In this document: piece by piece, positions 2,850-31,935 of the stretch
Numbering within the stretch: the stretch's first letter is position 1
Layout: the number at the start of each line of letters is the position of its first letter
Origin: Candidatus Saccharimonadota bacterium
GTDB taxonomy: Bacteria > Patescibacteriota > Gracilibacteria > UBA4473
DNA length: 32,000 nucleotides
Direction: 5' to 3'
NCBI GenBank assembly: GCA_965228485.1
Contig: OZ245819.1
Location: 690,001-722,000, forward strand
Program-made: the position numbers and the translations under genes
Notes under the pieces: model-generated
What the model saw: only the letters and a program-made list of their open reading frames with translations
Database searches by the model: none
What the model was told of the DNA's origin: nothing

Positions 2850-2873
2850 TTTATTTTTTATTTATATTATCTG

Positions 2874-5800: not shown

Positions 5801-6404
5801 TAAAGGTTAAAGATTTTACCGTTGGTGGCTGATTTTCTATCACTACTTTCAAATTATCTTGATCACGCAAATGAGGTCTATCAGAATCTTGAATCGTTAG
5901 TGAGACTTGATAAGTTCCTACTCGATTAAATACTAGGGGTACTTGGGATTCGGCATAATCTCTTCCATTAACTCTCCAGTTTGCCACAAAGGCTCCTGAA
6001 TCTCCTCCTGCAACTCCAAATGGTCGTGATTTTAAATCAATTTTTTGACCTAGTTGTGCTCTAATAACGCCTCCTGGAATAGTAACCCCATCAACTCGGG
6101 CTTCAATAGAAGCTGTTGGTTTATCCATATTATGGACCATTACAGACTTCGTCAACTCATTGGTTTCTCCAGAAGCAGCAATAACTCTTAAGGTTACTTC
6201 TTGAGGTCCATCTTCACGAAAAGTATACTGAACAATCTCCCCGTTAATTTTCACGTTCCCTGGAAACACCCACTCAAAAGTTTCACCAGCACGGCTTGTC
6301 GCTCTGAATGTTGCTGGTCTTCCCTTTATAATCATAGAGGCGGCCTCTACTGTGCCGCCTACTATTGCTAGTATAATAAAACCTAATACCAGTAACCGTT
6401 TCAT
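2874..6404 (-). CDS. Secreted giant protein: signal peptide, ~5 PKD-like domains, ~590-aa interrupted coiled coil, C-terminal PKD-like domain
   Basis: 1176-aa ORF with signal peptide MKRLLVLGFIILAIVGGTVEAAS. PKD-like signatures: FEWVFPGN, YEWNLQDGRKF, YNWDMGDGGKMF, and C-terminal FFEWDLDDGRVL. The central region is E/K/L/Q-rich with heptad-like character (EEEALQKEVELLKAKTEALEKV ... RAKLQAELDNLDMD). Confidence 0.8.
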   Translation of the reverse strand: MKRLLVLGFIILAIVGGTVEAASMIIKGRPATFRATSRAGETFEWVFPGNVKINGEIVQYTFREDGPQEVTLRVIAASGETNELTKSVMVHNMDKPTASIEARVDGVTIPGGVIRAQLGQKIDLKSRPFGVAGGDSGAFVANWRVNGRDYAESQVPLVFNRVGTYQVSLTIQDSDRPHLRDQDNLKVVIENQPPTVKSLTFTSASKVPGQINVKADASDPDGSIISYKFEILEQGRLFLSQVVREPTAYFDLSRYPGSHIYSFRVTVTDDRYATYTFDSAESFPFEKESFNTSPEARISVVPGNQGDVDTMFTFFAEASDVDKDYLRYEWNLQDGRKFYAPQFQYRFTEPGTQTVSVRVSDGIATVEESIVVSVVAKEVVQKENLPPKVQLKGILPSQRGDVNTVFRFYLTAEDPEADRLEYNWDMGDGGKMFIQNPAYRYKKPGKYKIKVRVSDGINEITGIADVIVDRIDQEKPPSLEEEALQKEVELLKAKTEALEKVKIAAPADTESIEEKISALSAQAEKAKQVSLERQKASREIALKEQERVQKQREELLKQLQATQEEKARLALERQIDKAEQDLEMLAKASAEEDTSGEINELERDLLENELNMLRQKIIEEQKTYLNEKINSLKEDQAKETDREKKFAIGLDIQAMQRYLASTDLLGEFAKEYKDGLLERKAELETRLSEAEDDQTKVLIQGQIQTIDDQLSNLDRLAQIQLDLARTQMTSEYGLDDETEFKAYLDDRMKELLAEKDALEQQLRSETDTVQAEVLKARLAEVQALLEQLGYLSTDEISLDDMPLVTAKQKINQYQKEVNSMVAGSSSDQAASLLSKSSDLKTQVKLLQDLDKSGLSPDMTVYDLRDQLETKKTEIVNDFRAEKDVVKLEALRSKILVLDNSLQTLSGLEDSGINEDNTLEEAQRILVNRRLNLTRTYVSSKEDATKKALLGQIQSVTRQQQLLEKFYDPNARALTIGNVKNDLVLKKDEFTQKLATSTTNDQKIFFQDELEEVDYNAVLLKRVENSLREIMKAEFEAELESHRASLLAELENVTDEEERAKLQAELDNLDMDSLKAIGFGQRNYFEGLIADMVISTNTKLFLYGQSVTEHGQAVFFEWDLDDGRVLTGQNINFSYRDSGFYRVKLNISDGLTESEDSLTIKVMPKVEEETTDGVLEE
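3200..4970 (-). other. Coiled-coil stalk segment inside the 1176-aa protein (approximate bounds)
   Basis: Residues ~479-1070 are dominated by E, K, L and Q with helical repeat character. Several short breaks occur (for example GLDIQAMQRYLASTDLLGEF, GYLSTDEISLDDMPLV, FYDPNARALTIGNV). Bounds were read from the translation and not computed with a coiled-coil predictor. Confidence 0.6.
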
Positions 6405-6413
6405 CTATAATGA

Positions 6414-8123
6414 TTAATTAATTTCAAAATCAATCGGAATAGTAGTGGTAATTGGAACCGTCAAAGTATATGGTTCCGATCGTAAAAACGATCCGTTTCT
6501 TGATTCAACTACTACTAGTTCCACACTTTTATCTCCAACACTATCAAATTCGTAAGTCATTTCTGGCGAACTGGCTTGTTGGAAATCTCCATCAAAACTC
6601 CAGAAATATGTTAGCCCTTGATTTATCCCTGAGATATTTTTACTCAAATTCCCATTAAATCGAATTTCAGCAGGCTTGAGCGTATTACCCGTAGAATCAA
6701 AAGTAAATTCTGCTACTGGCTGATTTCCAAGAACTGTAAAGGTTTTCGTGAAAGTATCACTATCACCTACTACATTCTCAATTTCTAGAGTAATTTCATA
6801 TTCTCCTGACTCACTAAACGATACCTCAACATTTTTACCAAAAGCTTCTTCAAAACATCCTCCTCCAGCATTGGCTGCACAAGTCCATTTATAACTTTTA
6901 ATAGATCCTACCAATACCGTTGAAGAACCTCCATCAAGCGCTACTTTTTCGTCTACAAGTAGCTGAGATTTACTGGCTGAAAATTGAGCATCAGTTCCTC
7001 CTACTGTTAGTGTTTTTTGAGTCGTAAATTGTTGACCATCAGAAGTCTGAACAACTCCCCGAATATTATAACTTTTTTCTTCTCCAAACTGATGAGTAAT
7101 TGTTGCTGTTGGATCAATTGTCGTATCTAGAACGGATTGAGTACGATCTCCAAAATCAATTACTACTACCGCCTGAGTACTAAGACCAAAAGTAATTCCA
7201 TTACGCGCAGCATCAGGGCTCGCCATTACCGTCCCCCCAAAATCATTCACTCCTTCTCCAGATAACAGTAATACGCTTGCAAGGTTTTGGGTAACACTTC
7301 CCGTGCCACTATTATCTCCAACATTTACAACCGAAACAGTTCCATCTGGATTAACGACTGTTTGAAGATTCGAACCATTACCAGTAATAAGCCCTGTAAT
7401 GTCTCCATTAGAGTTATTCCCTATCAGATTCGTATTGTTTGAATTAGTGCCTCCATCATTACTAATATCATTTCTGTCGTCAGTTCCGACTCCCGCATTT
7501 TTAATAACCGTATTCACAATCGCAAATGATGCTAGTACTACTAAAATACCGATAACGGCATAAATAAGTATTTTTTTAGATTTTTCGATATTACTATCTT
7601 CTCCAGCTGAAGCTACATACAGATAACCAGCATAAATTACCATGGCTACAGCAATAAGCCCAAGGAATGTCAGCGTAAAATTCAAGACATTAAGAATATA
7701 TTGTCTTAAAGAAGTATTTTGGCCAATGGTGTTAAATTTTTCTGGATCTGGCAGTTCAAACCGTCCCGTTGGTGTTACTCCCGTACCAGTATTTACCTGA
7801 TCAAAAATAGAATCAAAATCCTGCATGATAACTACGCTGCTTCCAGAATTAAATCCTGTATTATTTACTGAATATCTGACACTACTTCCTCCGCCAGTAA
7901 TATCATTACCAATACCTCGAATATTACCACCGATTCCTCTAATATCGCCTGTAATTCCTCCAATAATTCCTCTTACTCCACTAACCACATTAGCCACCCC
8001 ACTAACGGCTTGACCAACCTGGTTTAAACCTCCCACAAAGTCTCCAAAACTGAAGGCATGAGCCGTTGGAGTAACGGTCCACAGCGAGAAAGAAAGAACG
8101 ACACCGGTAATAAATTTTTTCAT
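6414..8123 (-). CDS. Fusion protein: signal peptide, Gly-rich repeats, VirB2/TrbC-like two-helix pilin module, N/G-rich linker, ~3 PKD-like domains
   Basis: 569-aa ORF with signal peptide MKKFITGVVLSFSLWTVTPTAHA. Gly-rich repeats: GGITGDIRGIGGNIRGIGNDITGGG. The hydrophobic hairpin FTLTFLGLIAVAMVIYAGYLYVASAGEDSNIEKSKKILIYAVIGILVVLASFAIVNTVIKNAG (nt ~7495-7715) is paralogous to the C-terminus of the upstream gene. PKD-like signatures: VIDFGDRTQ, YKWTCAANAGGG, YFWSFDGDFQ. Confidence 0.75.
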   Translation of the reverse strand: MKKFITGVVLSFSLWTVTPTAHAFSFGDFVGGLNQVGQAVSGVANVVSGVRGIIGGITGDIRGIGGNIRGIGNDITGGGSSVRYSVNNTGFNSGSSVVIMQDFDSIFDQVNTGTGVTPTGRFELPDPEKFNTIGQNTSLRQYILNVLNFTLTFLGLIAVAMVIYAGYLYVASAGEDSNIEKSKKILIYAVIGILVVLASFAIVNTVIKNAGVGTDDRNDISNDGGTNSNNTNLIGNNSNGDITGLITGNGSNLQTVVNPDGTVSVVNVGDNSGTGSVTQNLASVLLLSGEGVNDFGGTVMASPDAARNGITFGLSTQAVVVIDFGDRTQSVLDTTIDPTATITHQFGEEKSYNIRGVVQTSDGQQFTTQKTLTVGGTDAQFSASKSQLLVDEKVALDGGSSTVLVGSIKSYKWTCAANAGGGCFEEAFGKNVEVSFSESGEYEITLEIENVVGDSDTFTKTFTVLGNQPVAEFTFDSTGNTLKPAEIRFNGNLSKNISGINQGLTYFWSFDGDFQQASSPEMTYEFDSVGDKSVELVVVESRNGSFLRSEPYTLTVPITTTIPIDFEIN

Positions 8124-8128
8124 ATTGA

Positions 8129-8674
8129 TTAAAAAGCAGCTTGCATAACAGTGTTAACAATGGCGTAAGAAGCGAGAATAACAAGAATCCCGATTATACA
8201 CCAGATAATAATTTTCTTGGCTGACTCCATACGACTGTCGTCTCCAAGTGACGTAATATAAACGATCCCTGCCCAGACTAGAGCCACAACGGCAATAACT
8301 GCTGTGACAGCCAAGAGGAAGTTTGTCCATCCAATAATAAGTTCTTTAATATCTCGTTCTTTAGAAACGCCATCATCTAAATACTGTTCTACAACATTAG
8401 CGCCTCCTTCTAGGCCTGGACCATTAAAAACTGGTCCCCCATAAGGAAGAGCAATATTTCCATTGTTAGAAGTCGTTCTGGTCGTCCCTGCCTGGTTCCC
8501 TCGTTGACGAAGTGTTTGGTTTATATAAGAGTCCAATTGACCACTCAGCTGTTGATTACTCGTACTACTACCAATATTTTGCTGAATAAAACTATCAAAA
8601 TCCGCAGCCTCTACTTTCCCAGAAAGCAAAACAGCTACGACTAAACTAAAACATAGAACTAAAGCTTTTTTCAT
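8129..8674 (-). CDS. VirB2/TrbC-like (T4SS-pilin-like) small secreted two-TM protein
   Basis: The track ORF starts at 8725, but the internal ATG at 8674 gives a clean signal peptide MKKALVLCFSLVVAVLLSGKVEA/ADF. The C-terminus is a two-helix hairpin with a short charged loop: FLLAVTAVIAVVALVWAGIVYITSLGDDSRMESAKKIIIWCIIGILVILASYAIVNTVMQAAF. Signal peptide plus terminal hairpin is the VirB2/TrbC pilin topology. The family assignment is from memory, without an HMM run. Confidence 0.6.
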   Translation of the reverse strand: MKKALVLCFSLVVAVLLSGKVEAADFDSFIQQNIGSSTSNQQLSGQLDSYINQTLRQRGNQAGTTRTTSNNGNIALPYGGPVFNGPGLEGGANVVEQYLDDGVSKERDIKELIIGWTNFLLAVTAVIAVVALVWAGIVYITSLGDDSRMESAKKIIIWCIIGILVILASYAIVNTVMQAAF

Positions 8675-8708
8675 TTGTGTTTTTGTTATTCTGCCTATTT
8701 TACCACAG

Positions 8709-8717
8709 ATTATAACA
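8709..8717 (-). promoter_or_regulatory. Extended -10 promoter element (TGTTATAAT) for the pilin/PKD operon
   Basis: The minus strand reads ...TTGAATTGTGTTATAATCTGTGG..., which contains a TGnTATAAT match. It lies ~35 nt upstream of the ATG at 8674 and just downstream of the purL-C stop at 8744. No convincing -35 element was found. Confidence 0.4.
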
Positions 8718-8743
8718 CAATTCAAAAGAAAAAAAATTTTGTC

Positions 8744-10234: not shown

Positions 10235-12964
10235 CTATTGTGCTTCACAACGCATAAACTCTTTTCTCTCTTCACAAACTTTTGAAAAGTCTTCACTGTC
10301 TTCGTAACACTCATTCCATTCCCTCCATAAAACTCGACACTGAGTATTTTCTCGGCATTCCATCTCGTCATAAATCTGATTACAAGCTTTTTTATCTAGC
10401 TTAAGTCTGTTTACTTCTTCTACATCACTCCATGTATGAGCTTCAATCACATTTGGAGAAATGGTGAAGAAATTATCTCCAATGTAGATAATTCTTTGAA
10501 TGTTGTATTCATGATTTCCCCATCTACGAGTATTTTTATCTGACCAATAATCATCACTATAGTGAGTGGCTTTTCCTTTCAGTTGAAAACCTTCTTCTAA
10601 GCTCACATCATAAACAAAAGCTCCGTTGTAGCTCTGGCGAGCAGGCTGATAACCATTTTGAGCCGCTCCATCTTTTGTCATAACAGTAATTGGTAAGGCC
10701 ATAATTCCCTCAGCTTTATCAAAAAGTAATGCCTTATGATTATTAAGCACTTCACTGTAACTTCCCGTATCTCCAATAACCTTTTTATGAATTTCTTTTG
10801 GATTATTCACGTTTGATACATCAAAAATAGCTAACTTCACTCCCAAAACTTCATCAGGACTCAATCGATCATCCTCTTCTGCTCCTTCTTTTACCTCTTT
10901 CCCAAGACCAATAAGATGATTCTCATCGTAAGGATGTAGATAATCAGACCATCCTGGAATTTTCAATTCTCCCAAGACTTTTGGATTAGTAGGATTTAGA
11001 TCAATCACAAATAAGGGATCTACATTTTTAAAGGTTACCATATAACCTTTATTCCCCATAAATCGAACCGATTTGATATTCTCTCCTGGAGCAACCCCAT
11101 CAACCTTTCCGGTTAATTTTAAATTTTTATCCAGAATGTTCATCATCGATCCCTCTTGATTCATTTGTGTGGCAATTCGGAAATAATCCCCCTGTTCGCT
11201 CATTGAAAACTGATTTAATACGGAACCATCTACTTCTCCCTTCGCCACAAAATCAATGTTATTTTCATCCAGAGCAAACTTATAGATTTCCGTCACAGGA
11301 TTCCACTGCCAACCATCCCAAGAACGCCCCGTTATAAATCGTTCTTTGTGTTTTGTTCTCGTCACATAGAGATTGTTTGTAGAAGCATAAATTTGATTCC
11401 CACTTCCGAGCATCATAATTCGACCAACTTTTTCACTCGTATCTTTGGTATTAATTGCCCCAATAATTAAGAAATTTGAATCTTCAAAATTTGGGAAATA
11501 ATGAATATCCTGGCACGGAGCAATCATTTTTTCTGATGCATTGGCAGAATCTTCCATTATTGGAAGGTCTGTGTTTCTTAACATTGGAACTGGTCTTCCC
11601 CAATACCAATTTTGGTATTTATTGGTAACCAAATAAACTACATCACCAATCTTCCGAGATTGAGTGTAATTCCCTTCTAAGCTCACTTTTCTAATCTCTG
11701 TTGGATTTGATCGATCTGAAATATCAAAAGAGATAAGTGTCGTTAGCTGCTTATTTGTCCCTCCTGGATATGGCATCCCTGGCATAACCATTAATGCCAC
11801 TTCTGCTCGGGACTCAATTAAACGAGCATCTTCAGCAGAATCATCAAGAAAAATATCCGCATCATCAAAAAACTCTGGATCTTCCCATTCAAGCTCTTCT
11901 TCCAAAGGCATTGACTCCTTAACAGCTGGATAAACATTATACGAATTAGTTTGTCCTACTATGGTTAGAATATCTCCATCTACATACATCTCTCGTGGCC
12001 AAAAACCCTTGTCAGCAACAGACAAATTCGCCACTTCTTTCATTTGATCTGATGGAAAAGCTTTTACGATTCGAACGGCATTTTCTTTGATCATATAAAT
12101 ATGAGAGCCATCATTTTTAATGATATCGGCTTCATCAACACCGAATTCTTGAATATTTGTAGTAGAAAATTTTTCGGACCCCCCGCCTCCAATAGAAGAC
12201 TGAGTAGTAACTCCTTCTGATCTAGCCATAGCAGGCATATCGGATTCCATCATCTCCATATCCATAGCATCATCCATAAATAAGGCATTTCGACCATACA
12301 TTCCCTGCCCTTGTCTTTTTTGAAATTTTTTCATCTGCACATTCAGTGCTTCACAAGATTCAATTTTTGGTAAAACCAAATCCGATTCCCCAACTTCATT
12401 TCCTGTATCGATACCCCAAATCATTTGAGCCATCTCTCCTCTGCTAATTTTCTTAGCAATATCAGAGACTGACCCTGGCACGATTCTTTCACGACCGAGC
12501 GCTTGAGTAAACGGCTTAAACCACTCTGCTGAATCTTCTTCTTCAACTTCAACCTCTTTAACCTTGGCAATAATTTTGCTGGCTTCAGCAAAATTTATTG
12601 TATCACCTGGCTTAAAACTTCCATCTGGATATCCTTGGACAATACCCTTTTTCGTTGCCTGACAGATAATATTGTAGAACCATTGACCAGGTCTTACATC
12701 ATCGTAATCCACAATTGAATCACAAGTAGTACTATCTTTCTCAGAAGACTCTAGAACGATTTTTAAAAACTCAGCTCGGTTAATATCCTGTTCTGGCTTA
12801 AAAGTTCCATCTTCATATCCCTCTACCACTCCTTGATCTACCAAATATTGAACTGCCTTTGAGGCATTTGTTCCTTTGGCGTCTAATAATTCTGGAGATA
12901 TCTGATTGGCTAACGCCAAAACAGGCACCACTAGAGCAAAGGCCGCTAAACTAAATTTTTTCAT
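10235..12964 (-). CDS. Secreted cell-wall protein: signal peptide, 3 SLH-like repeats, beta-propeller domain (COG4880/Beta_propel-like), Cys-rich C-terminus
   Basis: 909 aa with signal peptide MKKFSLAAFALVVPVLALA. SLH-like repeats: AVQYLVDQGVVEGYEDGTFKPEQDINRAEFLKIVL and KKGIVQGYPDGSFKPGDTINFAEASKIIAK. FSTTNIQEFGVDEADIIKNDGSHIYMI is typical of the secreted beta-propeller family (recalled). The last 50 aa contain 7 Cys. Confidence 0.7.
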   Translation of the reverse strand: MKKFSLAAFALVVPVLALANQISPELLDAKGTNASKAVQYLVDQGVVEGYEDGTFKPEQDINRAEFLKIVLESSEKDSTTCDSIVDYDDVRPGQWFYNIICQATKKGIVQGYPDGSFKPGDTINFAEASKIIAKVKEVEVEEEDSAEWFKPFTQALGRERIVPGSVSDIAKKISRGEMAQMIWGIDTGNEVGESDLVLPKIESCEALNVQMKKFQKRQGQGMYGRNALFMDDAMDMEMMESDMPAMARSEGVTTQSSIGGGGSEKFSTTNIQEFGVDEADIIKNDGSHIYMIKENAVRIVKAFPSDQMKEVANLSVADKGFWPREMYVDGDILTIVGQTNSYNVYPAVKESMPLEEELEWEDPEFFDDADIFLDDSAEDARLIESRAEVALMVMPGMPYPGGTNKQLTTLISFDISDRSNPTEIRKVSLEGNYTQSRKIGDVVYLVTNKYQNWYWGRPVPMLRNTDLPIMEDSANASEKMIAPCQDIHYFPNFEDSNFLIIGAINTKDTSEKVGRIMMLGSGNQIYASTNNLYVTRTKHKERFITGRSWDGWQWNPVTEIYKFALDENNIDFVAKGEVDGSVLNQFSMSEQGDYFRIATQMNQEGSMMNILDKNLKLTGKVDGVAPGENIKSVRFMGNKGYMVTFKNVDPLFVIDLNPTNPKVLGELKIPGWSDYLHPYDENHLIGLGKEVKEGAEEDDRLSPDEVLGVKLAIFDVSNVNNPKEIHKKVIGDTGSYSEVLNNHKALLFDKAEGIMALPITVMTKDGAAQNGYQPARQSYNGAFVYDVSLEEGFQLKGKATHYSDDYWSDKNTRRWGNHEYNIQRIIYIGDNFFTISPNVIEAHTWSDVEEVNRLKLDKKACNQIYDEMECRENTQCRVLWREWNECYEDSEDFSKVCEERKEFMRCEAQ

Positions 12965-13086: not shown

Positions 13087-14775
13087 TTATCCCGCTACAC
13101 GATACACTTCTTCAAGGGTTGTCTCACCTAAAAGGACCTTTCTAAATCCATCCTCAAATAGCGTTAGATAATAAGGCTGTGTTTTAGCTACAAACTCTCT
13201 CAAATCAATTTCCGTAAGCCCCTCTGCCACACGAGCCCTCAGTTCATCAGAAAAATCAACCGTCTCACAAATCACCGTTTGATCTACAAATCCTGTGTGA
13301 GAACATTTTTCACACCCCTGTGGCTCATAAATGTGGATGTATTGAATATTCCCGTCTTCATCAACCTCAACTGAAAGCGAATCCAAAATATCTGGATAAA
13401 CTTCAATCACCCGAGAAAATGCTTCTTTTGCCTCTGGGTGTTTGTTGAGATCAAATTTAACTTTTTTACGACAGTGTGGACATATTTTTCGTACTAATCG
13501 CTGAGCGAAAATTGCATTAATAGCCGCCGCAATATTGAAGTATTCTAACCCTAAATTATTTAGACGAGTAATCGCTCCCAAAGCGGAATTTGTATGTAGA
13601 GAACTAAAAACTACATGACCAGTAAGAGAGGCCTCTGCGGCAAGTTTCGCTGTAGACAATTCTCGAATCTCACCAATAAGAATAACGTCTGGATCATGTC
13701 TCAACAAAGCCTTTAAGCCGTTTGAAAAATTATACTCAGAATTTTCATCGACTTGGGATTGAGTTACATTATCTAGATGATATTCAATCGGATCTTCTAA
13801 AGTTACTAATTTTTTCTCGGCTTCATTAAGCTCCGCAAGCATAGAGTATAATGTTGTTGTTTTCCCACTTCCTGTTGGACCGGTCACCAAAACCATCCCA
13901 TTTTTATGCCCGATCGCTTTTCGAATACTACTTTCAATATGAGGCTCAAATCCGAGGTCACTAAAAGTTTTGATTCCTTTCCGACTATCAAGTACCCGCA
14001 TAACAACCGATTCAAAAAATTCTGTTGGTAGGGTTGAAACCCTTAAGTCTACATCACGATTATTAGCTCTAAATGAGATATGACCATCTTGAGGAATGTG
14101 AAAAATATTCGATTTCATTCCTGCGATATACTTAATATGCGAGACTAGTTTTTCAGCTCTGTCTTTAGGTAATGGGCAAATATCATGAAGAATCCCATTA
14201 ATTCTAAATCGAAGTAATCCTTTCTCTTCATAAGGCTGTATATGAATATCAGAAGCCCTAACCTGCAGAGCGGTAATTTCAATCTCGTTAAGCGCTTCTT
14301 GTGCCTGAAGGTTTTTCAGTTTTGTTTCCAAATCTCCGAGCCCTATGAACTGTTCCTCAAAAGTCTTACCATCTTTCTCATCAAATTGTTCTTTCAACTC
14401 TACTTTTTTTCGGTTAATGAGCTTAGAGCCATAATGCTTTAAAATCTCGTTAAGTCCGTTCTCAGAACAGACATTCATCTCGATCTCAAAACGATCAACC
14501 TCAAGTCTGTTTACAATTTTTTGTACCACTCTATCTTCTGGATTAACGGCTGCTAAACGAAGCTTAAAACCACTTCTAAAGAACGGCACCAGTTCAGCAC
14601 TTCGAGCTTCAGACTCTGATACAAACTGTAAAACTTCTGGGTTTATCGGAAACTTAGAAAGATCTATGTAGTTAAGCTGAAGCTTAGTCGCTAAGTCTTG
14701 CGCTTCTCTTTCTTCAAATTCTCGATTGATGTCACCAACAGGATTTCCTGTTGTTAAGTTTTGAGATGAATCCAT
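13087..14775 (-). CDS. pilB: Type IV pilus assembly ATPase PilB (GspE family)
   Basis: 562 aa. N-terminal T2SSE_N-like region, Walker A VTGPTGSGKTTTLYS, Asp-box/Walker B DPDVILIGEIRE, His-box LTGHVVFSSLHTN, and a tetracysteine motif CPHCRKK...CEKCSHTG. Confidence 0.9.
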   Translation of the reverse strand: MDSSQNLTTGNPVGDINREFEEREAQDLATKLQLNYIDLSKFPINPEVLQFVSESEARSAELVPFFRSGFKLRLAAVNPEDRVVQKIVNRLEVDRFEIEMNVCSENGLNEILKHYGSKLINRKKVELKEQFDEKDGKTFEEQFIGLGDLETKLKNLQAQEALNEIEITALQVRASDIHIQPYEEKGLLRFRINGILHDICPLPKDRAEKLVSHIKYIAGMKSNIFHIPQDGHISFRANNRDVDLRVSTLPTEFFESVVMRVLDSRKGIKTFSDLGFEPHIESSIRKAIGHKNGMVLVTGPTGSGKTTTLYSMLAELNEAEKKLVTLEDPIEYHLDNVTQSQVDENSEYNFSNGLKALLRHDPDVILIGEIRELSTAKLAAEASLTGHVVFSSLHTNSALGAITRLNNLGLEYFNIAAAINAIFAQRLVRKICPHCRKKVKFDLNKHPEAKEAFSRVIEVYPDILDSLSVEVDEDGNIQYIHIYEPQGCEKCSHTGFVDQTVICETVDFSDELRARVAEGLTEIDLREFVAKTQPYYLTLFEDGFRKVLLGETTLEEVYRVAG

Positions 14776-14781
14776 CCCGCC

Positions 14782-14790
14782 ATTATACCA
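14782..14790 (-). promoter_or_regulatory. Extended -10 element (TGGTATAAT) immediately upstream of pilB
   Basis: The minus strand reads TTCTGGTATAATGGCGGGATG. Only 6 nt separate the -10 hexamer from the pilB ATG at 14775, which implies a leaderless or near-leaderless mRNA if this promoter is used. Confidence 0.4.
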
Positions 14791-14819
14791 GAAAACCCCT
14801 AAAAAATAAAGTGAGGATT

Positions 14820-15161
14820 CTATCTATTTTCAAGAGCCTCTAGGCGTGCTTCAAGTTCTTTGTTTTGGTGTTTCAAAGCTTCAATTTCAGCATCTTTTTC
14901 TGCTTTTAGATCCTGAATTGCCTTCGCTAAAATGGCATTAAATGACTGATATTTAACGGATTCCACTTCACCTTCATTTCCATAAATCGCTAAATCTGGC
15001 ACAAGGCCAGCCACTTCCTCAGCGATTAAACCATAATCATGTTCTTCATTATTCTTCCAATCAAATTTAACAGGGATTAGATTTTGCACTGTCTCTAAAC
15101 CAAGATCTAAATCAATAATATTCAGTAACAATAACGACGCCAGATCTCCCGCCTGCATCAC
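14820..15161 (-). CDS. Tail-fibre C-terminal intramolecular-chaperone-like (peptidase S74-like) domain plus coiled coil; different frame from the upstream fibre gene; start uncertain
   Basis: LETVQNLIPVKFDWKNNEEHDYGLIAEEVAGLVPDLAIYGNEGEVESVKYQSFNAILAKAIQDLKAEKDAEIEALK matches the remembered S74 chaperone-domain pattern (L.pV.F.wk....GfIAqEv..v.Pe.v........v.Y..l...li.a.qeL). The frame opens at 15176 and overlaps the 3' end of the 15112-16986 ORF by up to 50 nt in the +1 frame. The only starts are GTG 15161, ATG 15158, or an internal TTG. Confidence 0.55.
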   Translation of the reverse strand: MMQAGDLASLLLLNIIDLDLGLETVQNLIPVKFDWKNNEEHDYGLIAEEVAGLVPDLAIYGNEGEVESVKYQSFNAILAKAIQDLKAEKDAEIEALKHQNKELEARLEALENR

Positions 15162-16986
15162 CCGATCCGCCAGACCCTACAGTAACGGTCACCGTTGGAC
15201 CCAGCGAAGAAGCGGCAATCCTTTTTTTACAATATCCTCCACCACCTCCAGCAGTTCGGCCGCCATCGTTACCAAGTCCCCCTCGACCATATTGGCCTCC
15301 CATAGCCGAATGACCACCTGCAAAACTATTCGACCCTCGTTCACCTGTAAGATTAAGGTCACCACCACTAGCACCAGCACCGCCACCGCCAGATCTCCCA
15401 CCTGCACCGCCATTTGCAGTACAATGCGATCCAAACGATGAGGCCGCTCCATTATGACCCCAATGGTTACCGCCGCCACCGCCACCGACAGCTTCAACGA
15501 TCACAGCCGTCAACCCTGCTGGCTTAGTCCAAGTCGTCGAAGAAGTATACACACGATACTCCGGCGCACCACCACCGCCAACAACGCTATCAACATAAGC
15601 CTTATTCGCCGCATCATTCGCCGCCGTCGGCGTGGCCACATTCACAATCTTATTAGAATTCAAATCAATGACACCAGCCACATCCAACTTTGCATCTGGC
15701 GCCGTCGTCCCAATCCCAATATTCCCATTTCCTAGATTCAAGGTCATCATATCACCGCCACCACCAGTAGAAGAAAATCTAGCTGTATCCTGAGCTCCTG
15801 CATAAGTTTTTATTCTTAATGAGTCTGTAGCATTACTAATAATTAAGCCGTCATCACTAGCTCCACCATTAACTTTCATGTCTCCGACCACCTGAAGCGC
15901 ATGAGATGGATTTGTCGTCCCAATTCCAACCTTCCCACTAGCATTAACAGTCAGAACGGTAGTTCCTGGTCCGCTATTAAATTTTGCTAAGTCCCCTGTT
16001 TGAGAATTATTTCCTTCCACTACAAGAGGAGTGGAAGCTGGGTGTTCTGATTTTGCAAATACCCCGACTCCATTAGGGCTATAACTCTCTCCCCACACAC
16101 CAAATACATACCCGCTAGAAGCTTGCGCTGTCCCACGAACAGCGGTTCCAGTTGTACTGTAATTCATACCATAAATACTTGTAGAATATTCTGCAGACGC
16201 GTCAGCGTTACCATAAATCCCTATTCCATATTGTCCCATAGCATTCCCATAAACCCCTATTCCATTTTGACCACTCGAAACACCAGAAACTCCTTGTCCA
16301 TTTGTTACGGTGCTTACTGAAGATATGGCAGCGTCCGTACCGTTACTGACAGAGGCCTGGATTCTACCATTTACCTCTAATTCTGTCGTTGGACTTGAAA
16401 CTCCAATTCCTACTCTCCCATTCTCTTGTATTTTCATAAGTTCAGCCCAATTTCCTCCTGGTCCAGGAGCATTTTTTCCGATAATTAAAGCTCGATTGTC
16501 ATTATCGTTATTATTCCAGTCCATAGAGATGTAGACATTGTCTTCTCCGTTTAATTCCAGCGCCCCACTACTATCATATACGGTTCCCCCTCTTACGAGC
16601 AAAGTTCCATCTATCTGGAGATCACCGTCTTCATCAATATTGGCTTTATCTGCATCGGCTCCCGTTCCAATCTGGAAAAGTTTTTCATTGGCCGCAGGGG
16701 ACTCTTTATGTACAGAAAATTGCGCTGGAGGTACGGCTGTCCCAACTCCAACCTGTCCGTTAGTATAGTACATATCTCCACCACTAGAATTCCAGAGCTG
16801 GTTGCTCAGAATATCTATCGCTGATGATATGGTAATAAGATCTGAGCGTACTTTGTTCCAGTCAGAGGCTCGAATAAGCTCCCCACTGTTTACCGTCGGA
16901 GTCGTTATCGTTACTGCGGCGTTTACTTTTAAGCATGGCACAAATACTGTCAGGGCAAATATCGAACTTAGAAGAAATTTTTTCAT
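15112..16986 (-). CDS. Secreted phage-tail-fibre-like protein with C-terminal glycine-rich domain
   Basis: 624 aa with signal peptide MKKFLLSSIFALTVFVPCLKVNA. A motif recurs four times: GQVGVGTAVPPAQFSV, GRVGIGVSSPTTELEV, GKVGIGTTNPSHALQV, GNIGIGTTAPDAKLDV. KIVNVATPTAANDAANKAYVD is a motif recalled from phage tail-fibre proteins. The C-terminus reads TWTKPAGLTAVIVEAVGGGGGGNHWG...GGGGAGASGG...GGGGGYCKK...GVVIVTEYY, a polyglycine-rich domain. Confidence 0.7.
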   Translation of the reverse strand: MKKFLLSSIFALTVFVPCLKVNAAVTITTPTVNSGELIRASDWNKVRSDLITISSAIDILSNQLWNSSGGDMYYTNGQVGVGTAVPPAQFSVHKESPAANEKLFQIGTGADADKANIDEDGDLQIDGTLLVRGGTVYDSSGALELNGEDNVYISMDWNNNDNDNRALIIGKNAPGPGGNWAELMKIQENGRVGIGVSSPTTELEVNGRIQASVSNGTDAAISSVSTVTNGQGVSGVSSGQNGIGVYGNAMGQYGIGIYGNADASAEYSTSIYGMNYSTTGTAVRGTAQASSGYVFGVWGESYSPNGVGVFAKSEHPASTPLVVEGNNSQTGDLAKFNSGPGTTVLTVNASGKVGIGTTNPSHALQVVGDMKVNGGASDDGLIISNATDSLRIKTYAGAQDTARFSSTGGGGDMMTLNLGNGNIGIGTTAPDAKLDVAGVIDLNSNKIVNVATPTAANDAANKAYVDSVVGGGGAPEYRVYTSSTTWTKPAGLTAVIVEAVGGGGGGNHWGHNGAASSFGSHCTANGGAGGRSGGGGAGASGGDLNLTGERGSNSFAGGHSAMGGQYGRGGLGNDGGRTAGGGGGYCKKRIAASSLGPTVTVTVGSGGSGDAGGRSGVVIVTEYY

Positions 16987-17137: not shown

Positions 17138-17647
17138 ATGAATTACGAAAAACCACAAAAGAAAAAGCGATCTGTGCTAAATATAATTTTGTGCTTCTTT
17201 ATTCTCTCTGCCTTTGCCTCTGCAGGGCTAGTTTCTTGGAAAAACATTGAAGCTGATAATCTGGAAAAAGAATACAAAAAGGCCATTGAAAACCAAGAAC
17301 GACAAATCAAAGAAATGATGGAAAATGATCAGATTGGAGCGAAAACAAAGGCTAAAAACATACTTACAAAAGCACAAGACTTTCGAATTGAGTGGTCAAA
17401 AATTTCTTATACCGTTCTCAGGGAACTTGAAAGTGAAGAAATCCAATTCGACCGGATTAGTGCTGGAAATAACAAATATTTTACCATTTCTGGCAGAGCC
17501 AAAGACCTACGATCAATTGCTCGACTTATTGCTAAAATTCGACAACACGAAAATTTTTCTGATCCATTTGTCTCAAATCTATCTAAAAATGGATCTTTAA
17601 ATCTACCAACAAATTTCAATCTAACCTTCTACTATATTGAATCATAA
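17138..17647 (+). CDS. PilN-like pilus assembly protein (bitopic, coiled coil)
   Basis: 169 aa. Short basic N-terminus, one TM helix (VLNIILCFFILSAFASAGLV), then a coiled-coil/periplasmic-type domain. It is the first gene of the pilus operon and is coupled to the next gene through a TAATG overlap. The assignment rests on architecture and context only. Confidence 0.4.
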   Translation: MNYEKPQKKKRSVLNIILCFFILSAFASAGLVSWKNIEADNLEKEYKKAIENQERQIKEMMENDQIGAKTKAKNILTKAQDFRIEWSKISYTVLRELESEEIQFDRISAGNNKYFTISGRAKDLRSIARLIAKIRQHENFSDPFVSNLSKNGSLNLPTNFNLTFYYIES

Positions 17648-18162
17648 TGAGAAATTCTATTATCTGGCTATCTTTAATTTCTGTAATTATTTACGGAGCC
17701 TGGACCTTCCCTCAATGGAACGAGTGGCAGGATAAACGTATTGAACTAAATAAACTTGAGAAAACCACAAAAGAAAAAACCGAGTCCATCAAAAAGTTAA
17801 AACAAACTCAGGCAAATTTAGAGTCTACAGAAGAAGATACACTTCTAGATCAAGTACCCTTAACCCTAAAACAAGAGCTCATCATGCTTGATCTACAAAG
17901 AATTGTTCAAGAAAGTGGTTTTATCTTTGATGGTCTAAGTTTTGCCAAAAAACAAAACAGTCAAGTTGAAGCTCCTGAGCTTATTATCACTTTCTCAGCT
18001 CAAGGTAAAAAAACTTCCATCCCAAGCTTTCTAAAACGAATTGAAGAAAACCAGCGCTTCATGGGTTTAAGAGATCTAAAATTTTCAGAAGGAGAACTTA
18101 ATGAAGTCCCTATTGCAACAATTTCAGCGAGTGTTTATAGCTTCGCTCAATCTGACAAATAA
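17647..18162 (+). CDS. PilO-like pilus assembly protein (bitopic, coiled coil)
   Basis: 171 aa. N-terminal TM helix (IIWLSLISVIIYGAW), then coiled coil (RIELNKLEKTTKEKTESIKKLKQTQANLES), then an alpha/beta-like C-terminus. TAATG overlaps occur on both sides. Confidence 0.4.
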   Translation: MRNSIIWLSLISVIIYGAWTFPQWNEWQDKRIELNKLEKTTKEKTESIKKLKQTQANLESTEEDTLLDQVPLTLKQELIMLDLQRIVQESGFIFDGLSFAKKQNSQVEAPELIITFSAQGKKTSIPSFLKRIEENQRFMGLRDLKFSEGELNEVPIATISASVYSFAQSDK

Positions 18163-19364
18163 TGGTTATGAAAAAAGCATCAAAAAATACTCAATCAAAT
18201 AAGAAAACTGCTTGGGAGCAGTTACAAAACCCTAAACTAAGATCTGTAATTTATGGAGTGACTAATAGGGACAATGATCCATGGTACATAAAATTAAATG
18301 ATTTTCTTTTAGATCATCAACCTTTATCACTTAAAGATAAAGCGCGTTTTTTTCACTCTTTAAAACTACTCGTAAATTCTGGAGTTCAATTCATTCGAGC
18401 CATTGAAATGCTCGCAGACCGAGCAAAACATGTAGGCTTTTCAAGAACACTGCATACGGTTGCTTATGACATGGAACACCGCGGACTTTCATTTTCAGAA
18501 AGTATTCAAAAATATCCCAATATATTCGCCCCATCTGAAGTAAAAATGATCTATTCGGGAGAACTTACAGGGAAAATTGATAAAACACTAGATTCGATCG
18601 CCAGCCAGTTACAAAAAAATATTGAGCTTGAAATGCGAATCAAATCAGCTTTGATGTATCCTATAACGGTTGTCATTGCGATCATTTTAGCCGGAATTGC
18701 CGTGATGATTTTTATTGTCCCAAAACTTACAGAACTGTTTTTGGAATTCGATAGCAAACTGCCTATCAGTACCAAAATTTTGATGGCTATATCGAACTTT
18801 ATGGTAAGTTTTTGGTGGCTAGTTTTAACTATCGCTATTGGTGTTTTCTTTTGGTTCAAAACCTGGAAAAGTTCAGAAGAAGGAAAACGAAAATATGATG
18901 AAATCATGCTTGAGCTTCCTGTTATAGGTCCAATGGTAAACCTCATTCAAACCGTAAGAATTAGTAGTAACTTTTCAACACTCATGGAGTCAGGAATTCC
19001 TTTAAATAAAGCATTAAGAGTACTTGGAGAAATTGTTCCAAACCGTATTGTCGGAGAATCAATTTTTGCCGTTGAAATGGAAGTAAGAAAAGGAGAATCG
19101 CTCCACCAATCATTTTTAAAACAAGAACGCCTAGATCCAGTACTTGGAGAAATTTTAGAAGTTGGAGAAAAGACTGGACACATTGCTGAGGTCTTAAAAA
19201 AACTAAGTGATCAGTATGAGTTGGAAGTTGAAGCTCAACTCAAAAATCTCTCAACGATTATTGAACCAATAATTATCCTTATCGTTGGAATAGCGGTTGT
19301 ATTTATGATGTTTGCCGTTCTTACTCCAATCTTCCAGATTCAAGAATTATTTGCTAACGCCTAA
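18162..19364 (+). CDS. pilC: Type IV pilus platform protein PilC (GspF family)
   Basis: 400 aa. Two GspF-type repeats and three hydrophobic segments (MYPITVVIAIILAGIAVMIFIVP; FWWLVLTIAIGVFFWF; IIEPIIILIVGIAVVFMMFAVLTPIF). Typical SG.pL..al and G...G.l...l motifs are present. Confidence 0.85.
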   Translation: MVMKKASKNTQSNKKTAWEQLQNPKLRSVIYGVTNRDNDPWYIKLNDFLLDHQPLSLKDKARFFHSLKLLVNSGVQFIRAIEMLADRAKHVGFSRTLHTVAYDMEHRGLSFSESIQKYPNIFAPSEVKMIYSGELTGKIDKTLDSIASQLQKNIELEMRIKSALMYPITVVIAIILAGIAVMIFIVPKLTELFLEFDSKLPISTKILMAISNFMVSFWWLVLTIAIGVFFWFKTWKSSEEGKRKYDEIMLELPVIGPMVNLIQTVRISSNFSTLMESGIPLNKALRVLGEIVPNRIVGESIFAVEMEVRKGESLHQSFLKQERLDPVLGEILEVGEKTGHIAEVLKKLSDQYELEVEAQLKNLSTIIEPIIILIVGIAVVFMMFAVLTPIFQIQELFANA

Positions 19365-19864: not shown

Positions 19865-20407
19865 ATGATCATGAAGACAAAAGGATTCACATTAATCGAA
19901 GCCATTGCTACAATGGTAATCCTTGCGTTTGCAATGTCTGGTGCTTTATACCTTTTAAGTAGTATTATTTTTGCTACCGAAAAAAATGAGAAACGACTTA
20001 TGGGAACTTATCTCGCACAAGAATGTACTGAACTTGTAAGAAACGCTCGAGATACAGCCTGGAAAAAAAGACTTCCATGGGACAAGGCTTTCGAATCACC
20101 GACTCCGTTATCTGCAAAATTCATTATTGAGGCGGACCACAATAATATGGCACCACCAATCTCTGGCGAGTCCTTTGGATTACTAATTAAAGAAATTAGT
20201 AGCGATAGTGAAGCAAAACTATATCTTGATGGAAGCGCTTACACACATACTCCTTCTACCACTCCTACTGAGTATAGCCGGTTTTTTACGATAAAAAGTA
20301 AGGGCGCTAACGCTATTGCAATAGAGTGTGCTGTGGAGTGGAAATATCGAGGACAGGACGAAAAAGTCGCCATCAGTACAATCCTTACTAACTGGTACAA
20401 AAACTAG
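19865..20407 (+). CDS. Minor pilin, PilV/GspI-like, with prepilin signal
   Basis: MIMKTKG/FTLIEAIATMVILAFAMSGALYLL: G/F cleavage site, Glu5 and a hydrophobic helix. 180 aa. Confidence 0.65.
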   Translation: MIMKTKGFTLIEAIATMVILAFAMSGALYLLSSIIFATEKNEKRLMGTYLAQECTELVRNARDTAWKKRLPWDKAFESPTPLSAKFIIEADHNNMAPPISGESFGLLIKEISSDSEAKLYLDGSAYTHTPSTTPTEYSRFFTIKSKGANAIAIECAVEWKYRGQDEKVAISTILTNWYKN

Positions 20408-20408
20408 A

Positions 20409-20951
20409 ATGCCAATAAAGAAATTACCAAAGACTCAATACCAAAGATCAGGATTCACCCTGATAGAACTTTTGGTAGCGGTTGTTATCTCTGGAATAGT
20501 ACTGGTAAGTGTTATGAGCAGTTTTTGGCTTTTTATTCAGACGCATCAAAAAGCTGAAGCCAATCGAGAACTTCAAAGGGAAGTTCGTTTTGCTATGACG
20601 AGAATCGCCGATAAAACTCGAAACTATTCTATTAAGTACAGCGAATATCAGTCAGGAGGTAATTGTCCGCCTTCTATTAATCAAAATCATAAACTCTGCT
20701 TAGAGGATCACTCTTTTGAATTTAGGGACGGAAATCTTTGGCTTGAAGATCAACCAATATTTTCCGAAAATAAATTTAAAGTAAACGATGCTTTTTTTGG
20801 TTTTTCTCCGGACGAAGATCCTAAGATAAATCTTGGAGAACTAGACTTACAAATTCAGCCAAAAGTAACGGTCTACTTAGAAGTAGAATCAAAAAGAGAT
20901 AGTAATATTAATTTCGAAGTACAAACGAGTCTTTCATCCCGAAAATACTAA
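20409..20951 (+). CDS. Minor pilin, PilW/GspJ-like, with prepilin signal
   Basis: The track ORF begins at 20328 inside the previous gene. The ATG at 20409, 1 nt after the previous stop, gives MPIKKLPKTQYQRSG/FTLIELLVAVVISGIVLVSV with a canonical prepilin site. Confidence 0.65.
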   Translation: MPIKKLPKTQYQRSGFTLIELLVAVVISGIVLVSVMSSFWLFIQTHQKAEANRELQREVRFAMTRIADKTRNYSIKYSEYQSGGNCPPSINQNHKLCLEDHSFEFRDGNLWLEDQPIFSENKFKVNDAFFGFSPDEDPKINLGELDLQIQPKVTVYLEVESKRDSNINFEVQTSLSSRKY

Positions 20952-23175: not shown

Positions 23176-24405
23176 CTACAGTAAAGAATTTTGAGCGCTT
23201 TTAATAGAGTCACTATTTATTAAAGGGTCTGTACTATTAACCATTTTTTTAACTTCTTCTATTTGTCCTTCTGGATTATTAACAAGTTTTTTTAAATCAG
23301 TTGTTTTGACTCCTTCTAAACGTCTTTTTTCTTTACCTTCATTAATACTATCTATCATCTCTTGATCCAATACTTGTTTAGCTTCTCCAGCCTTTACTCC
23401 CCTGGCCATCAGCAATACATTAACTGCATTTTGATAAGACAGCTCATAATCTAAATTAGCAATAACATTAATAATGTTCTCTCTTTCTCTTGGATCTATG
23501 CTCTCTATATTTTCGTAATAGGTTATTTTTTTAAAACAAGACAACAATGGTTCTAAGCTTTCTTCTGCTACTACATAAAAATGAATTCCTTGTTCTAAAA
23601 AATAAAACTGATTTAAATCTTTTAATGTCACCGAAGGGACGACTAGGTAAACGGTATTATAAATCTCTTCAAAGTTAGAACTCTTCTTAATTTTTTCAGC
23701 AGTACTCTTAGACTGTTCTTTAAGATATTTTTGCAAAGGATTTTTACTATCTGGATCATTAACTTTAGCGTCAAACACAATATATTGTCCTAAAAATTCT
23801 ACTAGAAAATCTGGTTTAAACTTACCGTCAAAGCTTTGTGGTAAATCATTATTATCGTAAGACGGAAAATCTATTCCTGGTTTTCGACATATTTCACGCA
23901 AAGAAGCTATAGTGTTTGTCTCATGATCATTCCAAATACGATTTCTTTCTTCTTTTTCTTTTTCTTTCTTTTCTTCCTCTTTTTCTATAATTCGATCTTT
24001 CTGCTCTTCAAAAACATCTTTCATCTTACTGGCCTCTTGAACAGCTCTTGTTTTTTCTGTCTCTCTCTGTTCTTCTCGCGCCTCTAGGTCTGACAGTTTT
24101 TTTCCAGCTCCTTTCAATCTTTCCAGATATTGATCATTTTCTGTTTTTAGTGAGACTATTTGCTTTTCTAAAGCAGATACTATTCCAGATTGCTTATCGT
24201 GTTGTTCTTTTATTCTTTCTAATTCCCCAATTTGACGGTTTTGCTGATCGATTTTTGCTTCTAATGAAGCATGATCCTCTAGCAATTTTAAACGAGAAGA
24301 ATCATCGCCTCCGCTCTTTTTTAATGAAAGAAAAATGTTAATACCAACAAGTCCAATTAACAATAAAAGCCCTCCTCCTAGTAACAATAACGTATTTAAA
24401 TCCAT
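23176..24405 (-). CDS. rmuC: RmuC-like DNA recombination/nuclease protein (N-terminal TM anchor, coiled coil, PD-(D/E)xK-like core)
   Basis: 409 aa. TM helix LLLLGGGLLLLIGLVGINIFL, followed by ~140 aa of coiled coil. KPDFLVEFLGQYIVFDAKV and VYLVVPSV parallel the remembered RmuC motifs RPDvvv.LP....vIDSKvsl and yVlmFiP.e. Confidence 0.5.
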   Translation of the reverse strand: MDLNTLLLLGGGLLLLIGLVGINIFLSLKKSGGDDSSRLKLLEDHASLEAKIDQQNRQIGELERIKEQHDKQSGIVSALEKQIVSLKTENDQYLERLKGAGKKLSDLEAREEQRETEKTRAVQEASKMKDVFEEQKDRIIEKEEEKKEKEKEERNRIWNDHETNTIASLREICRKPGIDFPSYDNNDLPQSFDGKFKPDFLVEFLGQYIVFDAKVNDPDSKNPLQKYLKEQSKSTAEKIKKSSNFEEIYNTVYLVVPSVTLKDLNQFYFLEQGIHFYVVAEESLEPLLSCFKKITYYENIESIDPRERENIINVIANLDYELSYQNAVNVLLMARGVKAGEAKQVLDQEMIDSINEGKEKRRLEGVKTTDLKKLVNNPEGQIEEVKKMVNSTDPLINSDSIKSAQNSLL

Positions 24406-30928: not shown

Positions 30929-31935
30929 GCTTCTTTAAGTTCTCGAACGGTTACACCAAGCTCTTCCAAAACCGATTTAAGCGTTCCTCTCTTCATATCT
31001 TTATTTTTATGAATTGGAACTGGCACGTTCACCCCTACCTTTCGAGAGACGTATACATGGTGTGAGCCTTCAATACGAATGGGACTTCCTAAGATTCTAT
31101 TAAGCTTTCTTTTGAGAGTATTTCCCCCTATGGCTCCTAGGGAGCTCAAAGGGATATCTTTCGATTTTTCCAAATCCACAACAGGATCAACAGCCTCTCC
31201 CGTGTCTACTACAACTTGATTTTCTGGAGAAAGATCAAGATATTCTTCATCCTCAAGAGATTCTAGATGTTGGACAAGTGCGGTAAAAATAGCTTTCTCC
31301 AGGGCGTCTCTAAGGTCTGCTCCTTTTTCTGCATGGAAAGCCTCTCGAAGGTTGTATCGCCCCTTATTAAGAACCACCTTCCCATTACGATAAACATCAA
31401 ACATATAACGGCCTTCATCTCCAGGTAAAGCAACTTCTACAAAAGCCAGAAAAAAGGCTTCGGAAGCAGTTCTTCTATGATCTTCAAAAATATGAGCCCC
31501 CTCAACCTGAACCTCCACCCCTCCTACCTGAAACTTTGCGGCCTTCACCGTTCTCGTGTCCCCTAAATCAACGGCTCTTGACCTTAGCTCTGACAACGAT
31601 TTCCGAGAAGGTGAAGAGGTATTTAGCAAGGCCGACTGGAAATCGGCACTTCTTAAAAGTTTAATAAAATTTAGCTTCTCAGCAAAGTCACTCATGCCTC
31701 GGTTAACCAATGAAGTTGATTCCGCCCCTTGAGAATCTGCTTCGTTCTCTGTTGCAAAACTTAGTGCCATTATTTTTTCGCTAAAGACGCGTTCTTTACC
31801 ATTTCTTACGGCTGCATCCGCAAGCCTCTCTAGGAAATTTGCATTAAAGTAACGATAAGCATGGAGTATCAAAATAGTTCTGATCATTCCATCCTGGAGC
31901 TCAAAACTATTACTCAGGACCGCAAAGTCATTCAT
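30925..31935 (-). CDS. Hypothetical protein with an uncharacterised ~270-aa N-terminal region fused to a C-terminal HicA-like (YcfA) domain
   Basis: 336 aa. The C-terminal ~60 aa, LKRKLNRILGSPIRIEGSHHVYVSRKVGVNVPVPIHKNKDMKRGTLKSVLEELGVTVRELKEA, match the remembered HicA pattern (GSHh....vP.H..kdl..gtl..il.qlgl). No motif was recognised in the N-terminal part. Its stop overlaps the pcrA stop in a palindromic TTAA. By eye, parts of the gene are clearly more GC-rich than neighbouring genes. Confidence 0.55.
   Translation of the reverse strand: MNDFAVLSNSFELQDGMIRTILILHAYRYFNANFLERLADAAVRNGKERVFSEKIMALSFATENEADSQGAESTSLVNRGMSDFAEKLNFIKLLRSADFQSALLNTSSPSRKSLSELRSRAVDLGDTRTVKAAKFQVGGVEVQVEGAHIFEDHRRTASEAFFLAFVEVALPGDEGRYMFDVYRNGKVVLNKGRYNLREAFHAEKGADLRDALEKAIFTALVQHLESLEDEEYLDLSPENQVVVDTGEAVDPVVDLEKSKDIPLSSLGAIGGNTLKRKLNRILGSPIRIEGSHHVYVSRKVGVNVPVPIHKNKDMKRGTLKSVLEELGVTVRELKEA

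Follow-up and report, generated by a model that had tools for sequence, protein, structure and literature searches.

An S74 remnant behind a chromosomal fibre gene beside pilB is probably the scar of a tip-domain swap

We analysed a 32,000-nucleotide (nt) stretch of the genome of a Candidatus Saccharimonadota bacterium (assembly GCA_965228485.1, contig OZ245819.1, positions 690,001 to 722,000; hereafter the window), in which a gene for a secreted, tail-fibre-like protein of 624 amino acids (aa), the large open-reading frame (ORF) or P0001, is overlapped at its stop codon by a small ORF that carries an S74-type domain in another frame. Comparison with related fibre genes suggests that the small ORF is probably the recombination scar of a tip-domain swap, a relic of the former C-terminus of the fibre gene, whilst homology and structural prediction indicate that the large ORF is a complete fibre ending in a full tip domain. 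This reading is built on the anatomy of the two frames, their homologies, the mosaic blocks of identity among fibre genes and the collinearity of the 3′ flank, all of which were observed directly. An earlier note on this DNA had taken the S74 domain to be the normal end of the protein, now encoded separately as a chaperone; its account of a fibre-like, chromosomal gene with a dyad-less S74 domain in a shifted frame stands, whilst the separately encoded working chaperone finds no support.

Results

Anatomy of the two reading frames

The features of the fibre locus, in window coordinates, are:

15112..16986, minus strand: large ORF (P0001), the 624-aa secreted fibre gene, from the ORF list, with a TGA stop at 15112-15114
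16921..16986, minus strand: signal-peptide-like N-terminus, aa 1-22, MKKFLLSSIFALTVFVPCLKVNA followed by A, read from the translation
15697..16920, minus strand: conserved N-terminal domain and shaft with four VGIGT-type motifs, aa 23-430
15568..15696, minus strand: collar segment holding NKIVNVATPTAANDAANKAYVD, aa 431-473, from the P0002 alignment
15115..15567, minus strand: glycine-rich C-terminal tip of Gly_rich_2 type, aa ~474-624, last strand VVIVTEY
14820..15161, minus strand: small ORF, 113 aa from the GTG at 15161 or 112 aa from the ATG at 15158
14820..15161, minus strand: the same ORF as a 5′-truncated S74 domain with a coiled-coil tail, from the PF13884 match
14991..15122, minus strand: core of the S74 match, NIIDLDLGLETV...GLIAEEVAGLVPDL, from the profile match
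14776..14819, minus strand: intergenic flank in common with a sister-genome fibre gene, nearly identical to positions 10863-10901 of the sister locus (L001)

The translation of the large ORF contains four G-x-VGIGT-x-x-P-x-x-x-L-x-V motifs, a NVATPTAANDAANKAYVD motif and a poly-Gly C-terminus ending in VVIVTEYY and the stop, all as the earlier note described them, and matches to PHROG tail-fibre families bear out its fibre-like character. The N-terminus (MKKFLLSSIFALTVFVPCLKVNA/AVTITT) consists of MKK, a hydrophobic core and VNA before the A and was called a Sec signal peptide by eye; identity to the paralogue P0002 (see below) begins at aa 23, the predicted mature N-terminus, which favours the call, and the signal peptide itself is unrelated to that of the paralogues. 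A helix is predicted at aa 455-469, within the collar. An AlphaFold model of the N-terminal 200 aa was of low quality, with a mean predicted local distance difference test score (pLDDT) of 53.5.

Relative to the large ORF, whose stop (TAT TAT TGA) it spans, the small ORF is in the +1 frame; the end of the large ORF (GAA TAT TAT TGA) doubles as AAT ATT ATT GAT in the small one. Its frame is closed upstream by a TAG at 15179-15177 and is open for 62 nt before the fibre stop; the ORF list agrees with the coordinates, the shifted frame, the overlap with the stop and the opening at 15176 that had been reported before. Tryptic peptides unique to the small ORF would include NNEEHDYGLIAEEVAGLVPDLAIYGNEGEVESVK.

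A truncated S74 domain

The small ORF matches PF13884 (Peptidase_S74) over residues 14-57 and profile positions 8-56 of 58 (28.9 bits, E 1.4e-6; curated cut-off 22 bits) and also the extreme C-termini of 20 PHROG tail-fibre and tail families, which places the S74-like assignment of the earlier note on a profile footing. The match begins at residue N14 and is without the first 7 profile positions, the site of the Ser-Lys dyad. At the dyad position the small ORF reads L-A-S-L-L-L, and the S[DE]xx[LIVM]K motif is absent from all three frames of 15100-15330, so the cleavage dyad is missing, as had been suspected, and a single-base indel cannot rebuild a normal fused S74 end. Similarity to the S74 end of the sister-genome relative P0003 (42% identity) runs from LKTN/LLLN, the residue preceding N14. 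Downstream of this point the S74 core is without visible decay, and the trimerisation-type motif is kept as GLIAEEV (Q to E relative to G-[FVL]-IAQ-EV), a variant present in other S74 proteins. Cleavage of S74 domains needs the Ser-Lys dyad, and the G-V-IAQ region has been tied to trimerisation (PMC3742440).

Were the small ORF expressed alone, its product could help the fibre, or an S74-ended paralogue, to trimerise or assemble in trans without cleavage, or could be a small coiled-coil partner of either, and in keeping with this the ORF has 112-113 open codons behind an ATG or GTG start, an intact S74 core and coiled coil, and a call by the gene caller. However, its start context is GC-rich and sits inside the fibre gene, unlike all other window genes (the 25 nt before the ATG have an AT content of 36%, the lowest of the 26 window ORFs, against a range of 48-92%), and the ~47-nt overlap with the fibre gene is not a coupling-type arrangement. 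Equivalent Gly-rich fibres elsewhere are without such a partner (see below), and the homologue search with the small ORF returned 7 matches, all weak, short and to unrelated fragments, one of them (P0209 at locus L003) among numerous short ORFs without annotation; a conserved stand-alone family was not found. Furthermore, the S74 domain has been described as an intramolecular chaperone whose release depends on the Ser-Lys dyad (PMC3742440). We therefore consider an expressed helper quite unlikely, and the least gene-like start context in the window, together with the S74-less equivalents, also speaks against the separate chaperone of the earlier note. Schwarzer et al. 2007 reportedly found that the S74 domain works only in cis. 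The orphan S74 ORF is most likely untranslated and would have no chaperone role, in keeping with a recombination scar.

A complete fibre with a glycine-rich tip

With phmmer, the last 200 aa of P0001 matched Gly_rich_2 proteins at E 3.8e-21 to 1e-7, relatives of 160-350 aa of which many carry PF21722 (Gly_rich_2). This family is matched by 7/13 alignment members (best E 1.7e-12); P0001 itself matches no Pfam family at E<=1, PF21722 included, probably because its poly-Gly compositional bias lowers the score. All of the aligned homologues (12/12) stop 0-1 residue past ...G(I/V)V(I/V)V(T/Y)EY(Y/S), with VIVTEYY or FITEYY as the last residues of three of them. HMMER, run exhaustively over 1.84 billion representatives, gave a similar picture: among the matches listed, the Gly-rich match ends <=3 residues from the target C-terminus in 14/16 single-stretch matches, and most of the strongest matches cover the collar motif NKIVNVATPTAANDAANKAYVD, which is repeated up to 28 times in large proteins. 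AlphaFold modelled the tip with a pLDDT of 85.7 overall and >90 over the Gly-rich domain, in which VVIVTEY forms the last, integral strand. Foldseek searches with this model matched the Pam3 fibre (7ypx_A, E 3.7e-4, probability 0.92; TM-scores modest), Bxb1 tail-tip proteins and many BFVD entries named 'Glycine-rich domain-containing protein' (probability 1.00, E down to 1.7e-10). When 50,697 phage genomes were searched by tblastn with the Gly-rich module, none matched; the low-complexity filter was on and probably masks this query.

Two equivalent fibres, P0275 and P0322, are built of VGIGT motifs, a NKIxNVxxPTAAxDAAxKAYVD-type collar and a C-terminal Gly-rich domain, without S74, and no S74-like sequence was found downstream of either gene at its locus. 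As the homologues share the C-terminal end of P0001, and as these two fibres do without S74, a fibre of this kind would need neither an S74 domain nor a frameshift.

A programmed +1 frameshift, or a 1-nt sequencing error, would instead join the Gly-rich and S74 domains in one polypeptide; the frames do overlap, and that of S74 stays open over the 62 nt before the fibre stop. Yet the Gly-rich domain stops exactly where all homologues stop, the SDxxxK part of the S74 domain occurs in no frame, so that no single indel restores a normal domain, and the overlap (15112-15176), on reading, holds no prfB-like or other slippery +1 motif. Decoding of the TGA as Gly yields just 16 extra residues before a TAA, in a lineage that stops at TGA. 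We regard a joined polypeptide as very improbable, and a fibre that ends at its own tip, followed by a recombination scar, fits these observations.

Mosaic fibre genes in two genomes

The best match to the large ORF is P0002 (635 aa), a paralogue in the same genome (a single 1,295,315-bp contig), and residues 21-428 of P0002 equal residues 23-430 of P0001, an exact 408-aa block at the protein level. The two proteins have different signal peptides, and their distal parts diverge directly after GIGTTAP, P0002 having at its end an S74 domain that is intact and in frame (SSDKRLKKDI...). The tandem relatives P0003 and P0005 come from a sister genome, OZ246423.1 ('Candidatus Altimarinota bacterium', 1.326 Mb); their locus, L001, adjoins a 1908-aa C1q-domain protein and housekeeping genes. 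The S74 ends of P0002, P0003 and P0005 are all in frame, with the SDxRLK motif intact. A comparison of fused with split versions, which the earlier note had proposed, thus finds in-frame S74 in these three relatives and no S74 in the Gly-rich P0275 and P0322, and lends no support to a split chaperone.

The four proteins are patchworks of exactly shared stretches. Thus P0001 359-427 equals P0003 194-262 at the protein level, with a sub-block at 15707-15931 that has 97.8% DNA identity to the P0003 gene, whilst P0003 22-193 equals P0005 22-193, and P0002 428-635 equals P0005 418-625, an exact match of 208 aa between genomes that takes in the S74 end entirely. DNA identity between the two genomes is only ~75% over the N-terminal domains. 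Between P0002 and P0005, the N-terminal domains are only ~73% identical despite the exact 208-aa block, and this discrepancy suggests that the two lineages have exchanged DNA recently.

The N-terminal domain that follows the signal peptide (TPTVNSGELIRASDWNKV ... IDEDGD ... GEDN.Y...DWNN.D) is conserved, with ~70 invariant columns across 11 family members. In the distant relatives P0004-P0011 the N-terminal ~180 aa are ~50% identical, the tip is different and the end is Cys-rich (...GTCTNAPNASGVCSCS); these genes are situated among giant surface proteins, next to gyrA, and not between pilB and pilN. Loci L001 and L004-L006 and the window hold only housekeeping and surface-protein genes, with no prophage context. 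Since the tips differ, the N-terminal part is shared and the loci are chromosomal, the family is a cellular one with a conserved proximal end and exchangeable distal ends. The 'hypervariable gene' of a published Gracilibacteria genome was considered as a relative and rejected, being an unrelated PTD-repeat protein, and our literature search on S74-type fibres in Patescibacteria found nothing.

An assembly chimera at the junction, produced via the 1.2 kb over which the two paralogous fibre genes do not differ, is in our view very improbable: the exact 408-aa common block is a potential point of assembler collapse or switching, but the odd junction lies ~580 nt outside it in unique sequence, a switch inside the repeat would swap whole downstream halves and make no truncated out-of-frame S74, and the source is a single 1.295-Mb contig.

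A shared 3′ flank and the pilB stubs

Alignment with P0003 pairs its 3′ end with the final 32 nt of the small ORF and the TAG stop, and its flank with the next ~40 nt (AATCCTCACTTTATTTTTTAGGGGTTTTCTGGTATAATG); the two flanks are almost identical, and the AATCCTCACTTTATTTTTTAGGGGTTTTCTGGTATAATG motif is unique both in the window and in the sister locus. In the window this flank leads directly into pilB, and in the sister genome into a decayed stub made up of the pilB promoter and ~80 nt from the beginning of pilB. Two such stubs (L001 7860-7945 and 10863-10975) flank the tandem fibre genes; one of them lies upstream of P0003, and each is followed by the same ~70-nt leader and signal peptide. 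Two stubs with the same sequence after each point to a duplication of the fibre-pilB junction segment in the sister genome.

As the 3′ end of the small ORF and the flank are collinear with P0003, with a pilB stub behind, the simplest reading of these alignments is that in the ancestor pilB would have directly followed a fibre gene whose S74 end was still in frame. The sister-genome stub also argues that the adjacency of fibre and pilB is old; it is not common to the more distant family members. Scans for orthologous pilB loci gave none, either in metagenomes with PilB or with the conserved flank, and a scan of the genome collection yielded the tandem fibre locus of the sister genome and no other. 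A complete tip, and an S74 domain that is 5′-truncated and collinear with the end of P0003, speak against the earlier view that S74 is the normal end of this protein, now a separate chaperone.

A proposed history of the locus

The order of events would be as follows. An ancestor would have had a fibre gene with an in-frame, self-cleaving S74 end immediately upstream of pilB, and copies of this gene would have carried a piece of pilB along. In the window genome the gene would have stayed at pilB, with a Gly-rich module taking the place of its distal part. On the 5′ side the crossover would have fallen at the GIGTTAP motif (about 15697), the incoming part would have comprised the collar and the Gly_rich_2 tip with its own stop codon, and the 3′ crossover, at about 15115-15125, would have fallen inside the old S74 domain, just after the Ser-Lys motif and out of frame. 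Because of that position, ~100 codons of S74 and coiled coil could have been left open as an orphan between the new stop and the pilB promoter. At the 3′ junction GAATATTATTGA reads both as ...EYY-stop and as ...NIID, and it may have served as the microhomology used in the exchange.

Several points weigh against this history. The ancestral state is drawn from a stub in the sister genome, and a donor of the Gly-rich module was not found in the window genome or the sister genome. The small ORF was predicted as a gene by the gene caller, and, as it is open for 113 codons in a genome of ~37% GC, keeps GLIAEEV and scores above the Pfam threshold, it must be either very young or kept by selection. 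On the other side, the 408-aa block of P0001 is still identical to P0002, so the recombination would be recent, and an intact remnant would be expected even without selection.

The fibre itself would be exported by Sec, its conserved N-terminal domain presumably docking on an envelope structure and its shaft displaying the variable tip. The Gly-rich tip resembles phage fibre tips, and by this analogy it could plausibly bind the surface of another cell. Its adjacency to the pil genes is compatible with a role as a pilus-associated adhesin.

Genomic context of the fibre gene

The pil genes around the fibre gene are:

13087-14775, minus strand: pilB-type assembly ATPase (T2SSE), PF00437, E 3e-109
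17138..19364, plus strand: divergent pilN, pilO and pilC, from the Pfam families PilN, PilO and T2SSF
after pilC and up to ~20951, plus strand: three pilin genes, from Pfam N_methyl

Pfam matches thus support pilB downstream and a divergent pilN upstream, as noted before. The other genes of the 32-kb window encode PKD surface proteins, type IV secretion system (T4SS)-type pilins, an SLH/beta-propeller protein, ribosomal proteins, rpoA, purL-like genes and uvrD; phage genes are absent from the window, in agreement with the earlier note, and a repeat search of the window gave no silent cassettes or further copies of fibre modules.

A promoter and terminator scan found no terminator between the fibre gene and pilB. 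An extended -10 (TGgTATAAT, 14790-14782 on the minus strand), spotted by eye 6 nt upstream of the pilB ATG, is probably, judging from its sequence, the pilB promoter; the consensus promoter scan was silent on it for want of a -35 match. As the -10 sits only 6 nt before the ATG, the pilB mRNA may be leaderless or near-leaderless. Shine-Dalgarno-like motifs were not seen upstream of the window ORF starts, and the leaders are A/T-rich (e.g. ataaaaaaataaATG), hence translation initiation here seems to rely on unstructured AT-rich leaders.

Candidatus Altimarinota is a group known for reading UGA as Gly. Genetic code 25 (UGA as Gly) was considered and rejected, as in-frame TGA codons are required by none of the window ORFs and TGA acts as a stop in the sister genome. 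Of the 27 window ORFs, 26 end in TAA or TAG and the fibre gene alone in TGA, with no TGA in frame in any of them; in the sister genome TGA ends 2/11 genes and is internal to none. Read-through of the fibre TGA would add +16 residues only, before a TAA in the same frame. Since TGA serves as a stop, is rare and never occurs in frame, the lineage appears to use the standard code with TGA avoided.

Further genes of the window also stood out. Two large multi-PKD proteins (405-6404) adjoin genes with T4SS-pilin domains, namely two adjacent genes (6414-8123 and 8129-8725, minus strand) with a TrbC/VirB2-like T4SS pilin domain, one of them fused to PKD domains. Two ORFs further along (19865-20407 and 20328-20951, plus strand) overlap by 80 nt; the latter has its pilin N-methylation motif at residues 40-62 and a listed GTG start, so its true start is probably downstream of that GTG. 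A 409-aa ORF (23176-24405, minus strand) without a Pfam match lies in the lowest-GC stretch of the window (~31% vs. ~38%), and a 336-aa protein (30925-31935, minus strand), unusually long for a HicA toxin, has its HicA-toxin domain confined to the C-terminus (residues 286-328).

Discussion

Relation to known systems

The small ORF shares with the C-terminal chaperone domain of phage endosialidases, tail-spikes and fibres (PF13884, also known from the eukaryotic MYRF ICD) the profile, the G-x-IA-x-EV region and the coiled coil. It differs in having no dyad, in lying behind a stop codon and in not being fused in frame, so the two features that define a working S74 domain, the dyad and in-frame fusion, are both missing; P0002, P0003 and P0005, by contrast, are ordinary members. 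The tip of P0001 is alike, by homology and predicted fold, to Gly_rich_2 domains (PF21722) of phages and giant viruses, such as the cyanophage Pam3 fibre (PDB 7ypx) and the Bxb1 tail-tip (PDB 9d93), and in these relatives too the domain is C-terminal, although the closest relatives of the tip are short, apparently lipoprotein-like bacterial proteins and not phage proteins. With the chromosomal 'tail fiber domain-containing proteins' of Patescibacteria, P0001 shares the signal peptide, N-terminal domain, VGIGT shaft and variable tip, and it is set apart from them by its Gly-rich tip, the S74 remnant and its position between pilB and pilN.

Phage tail-fibre genes evolve as mosaics by exchange of distal modules. 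Here too exact and diverged blocks alternate, the breaks coincide with short conserved motifs and part of the replaced module is still in place, but the genes are cellular, in two ~1.3-Mb Altimarinota genomes and with no phage context. T4 gp38 and gp57A and lambda Tfa are dedicated chaperone families with their own translation signals and conserved synteny. A small gene likewise lies directly downstream of the fibre gene here; it is instead a truncated piece of a cis-acting domain, overlapping out of frame and belonging to no stand-alone family. The whole gene thus adds a mosaic member to the chromosomal fibre proteins, a family that is known but little studied, and nothing about it is categorically new.

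Implications

A bolder proposal, which we think rather unlikely, is that the fibre family constitutes an actively shuffled tip-switching system of Altimarinota, next to type IV pilus genes. Homologous recombination at the GIGT motifs, and at the conserved S74 and 3′ flank, would let distal receptor-binding modules pass between these cell-encoded fibre genes, in one genome or across co-occurring genomes, with DNA possibly supplied by pilus-mediated uptake, and the S74 remnant and flank would serve as the 3′ homology arm for a renewed tip switch. If this were so, the host or prey cell bound by the bacterium would change.

A recombination scar would explain what looked like a trans-encoded S74 chaperone. 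Bacteria of the small-genome Patescibacteria type possess chromosomal phage-fibre-like surface proteins that undergo modular tip swaps, as documented by stretches that are exactly the same in genes of one genome and across two. If the fibres mediate attachment to host cells, a role ascribed to the type IV pili of such bacteria, module exchange would be a simple route to new partner specificity. For annotation the lesson is that an ORF which is open and matches Pfam may, when it follows a fibre gene, be what is left of a displaced C-terminus, and for the biology of these bacteria the locus offers a modest lead on the shuffling of surface adhesins.

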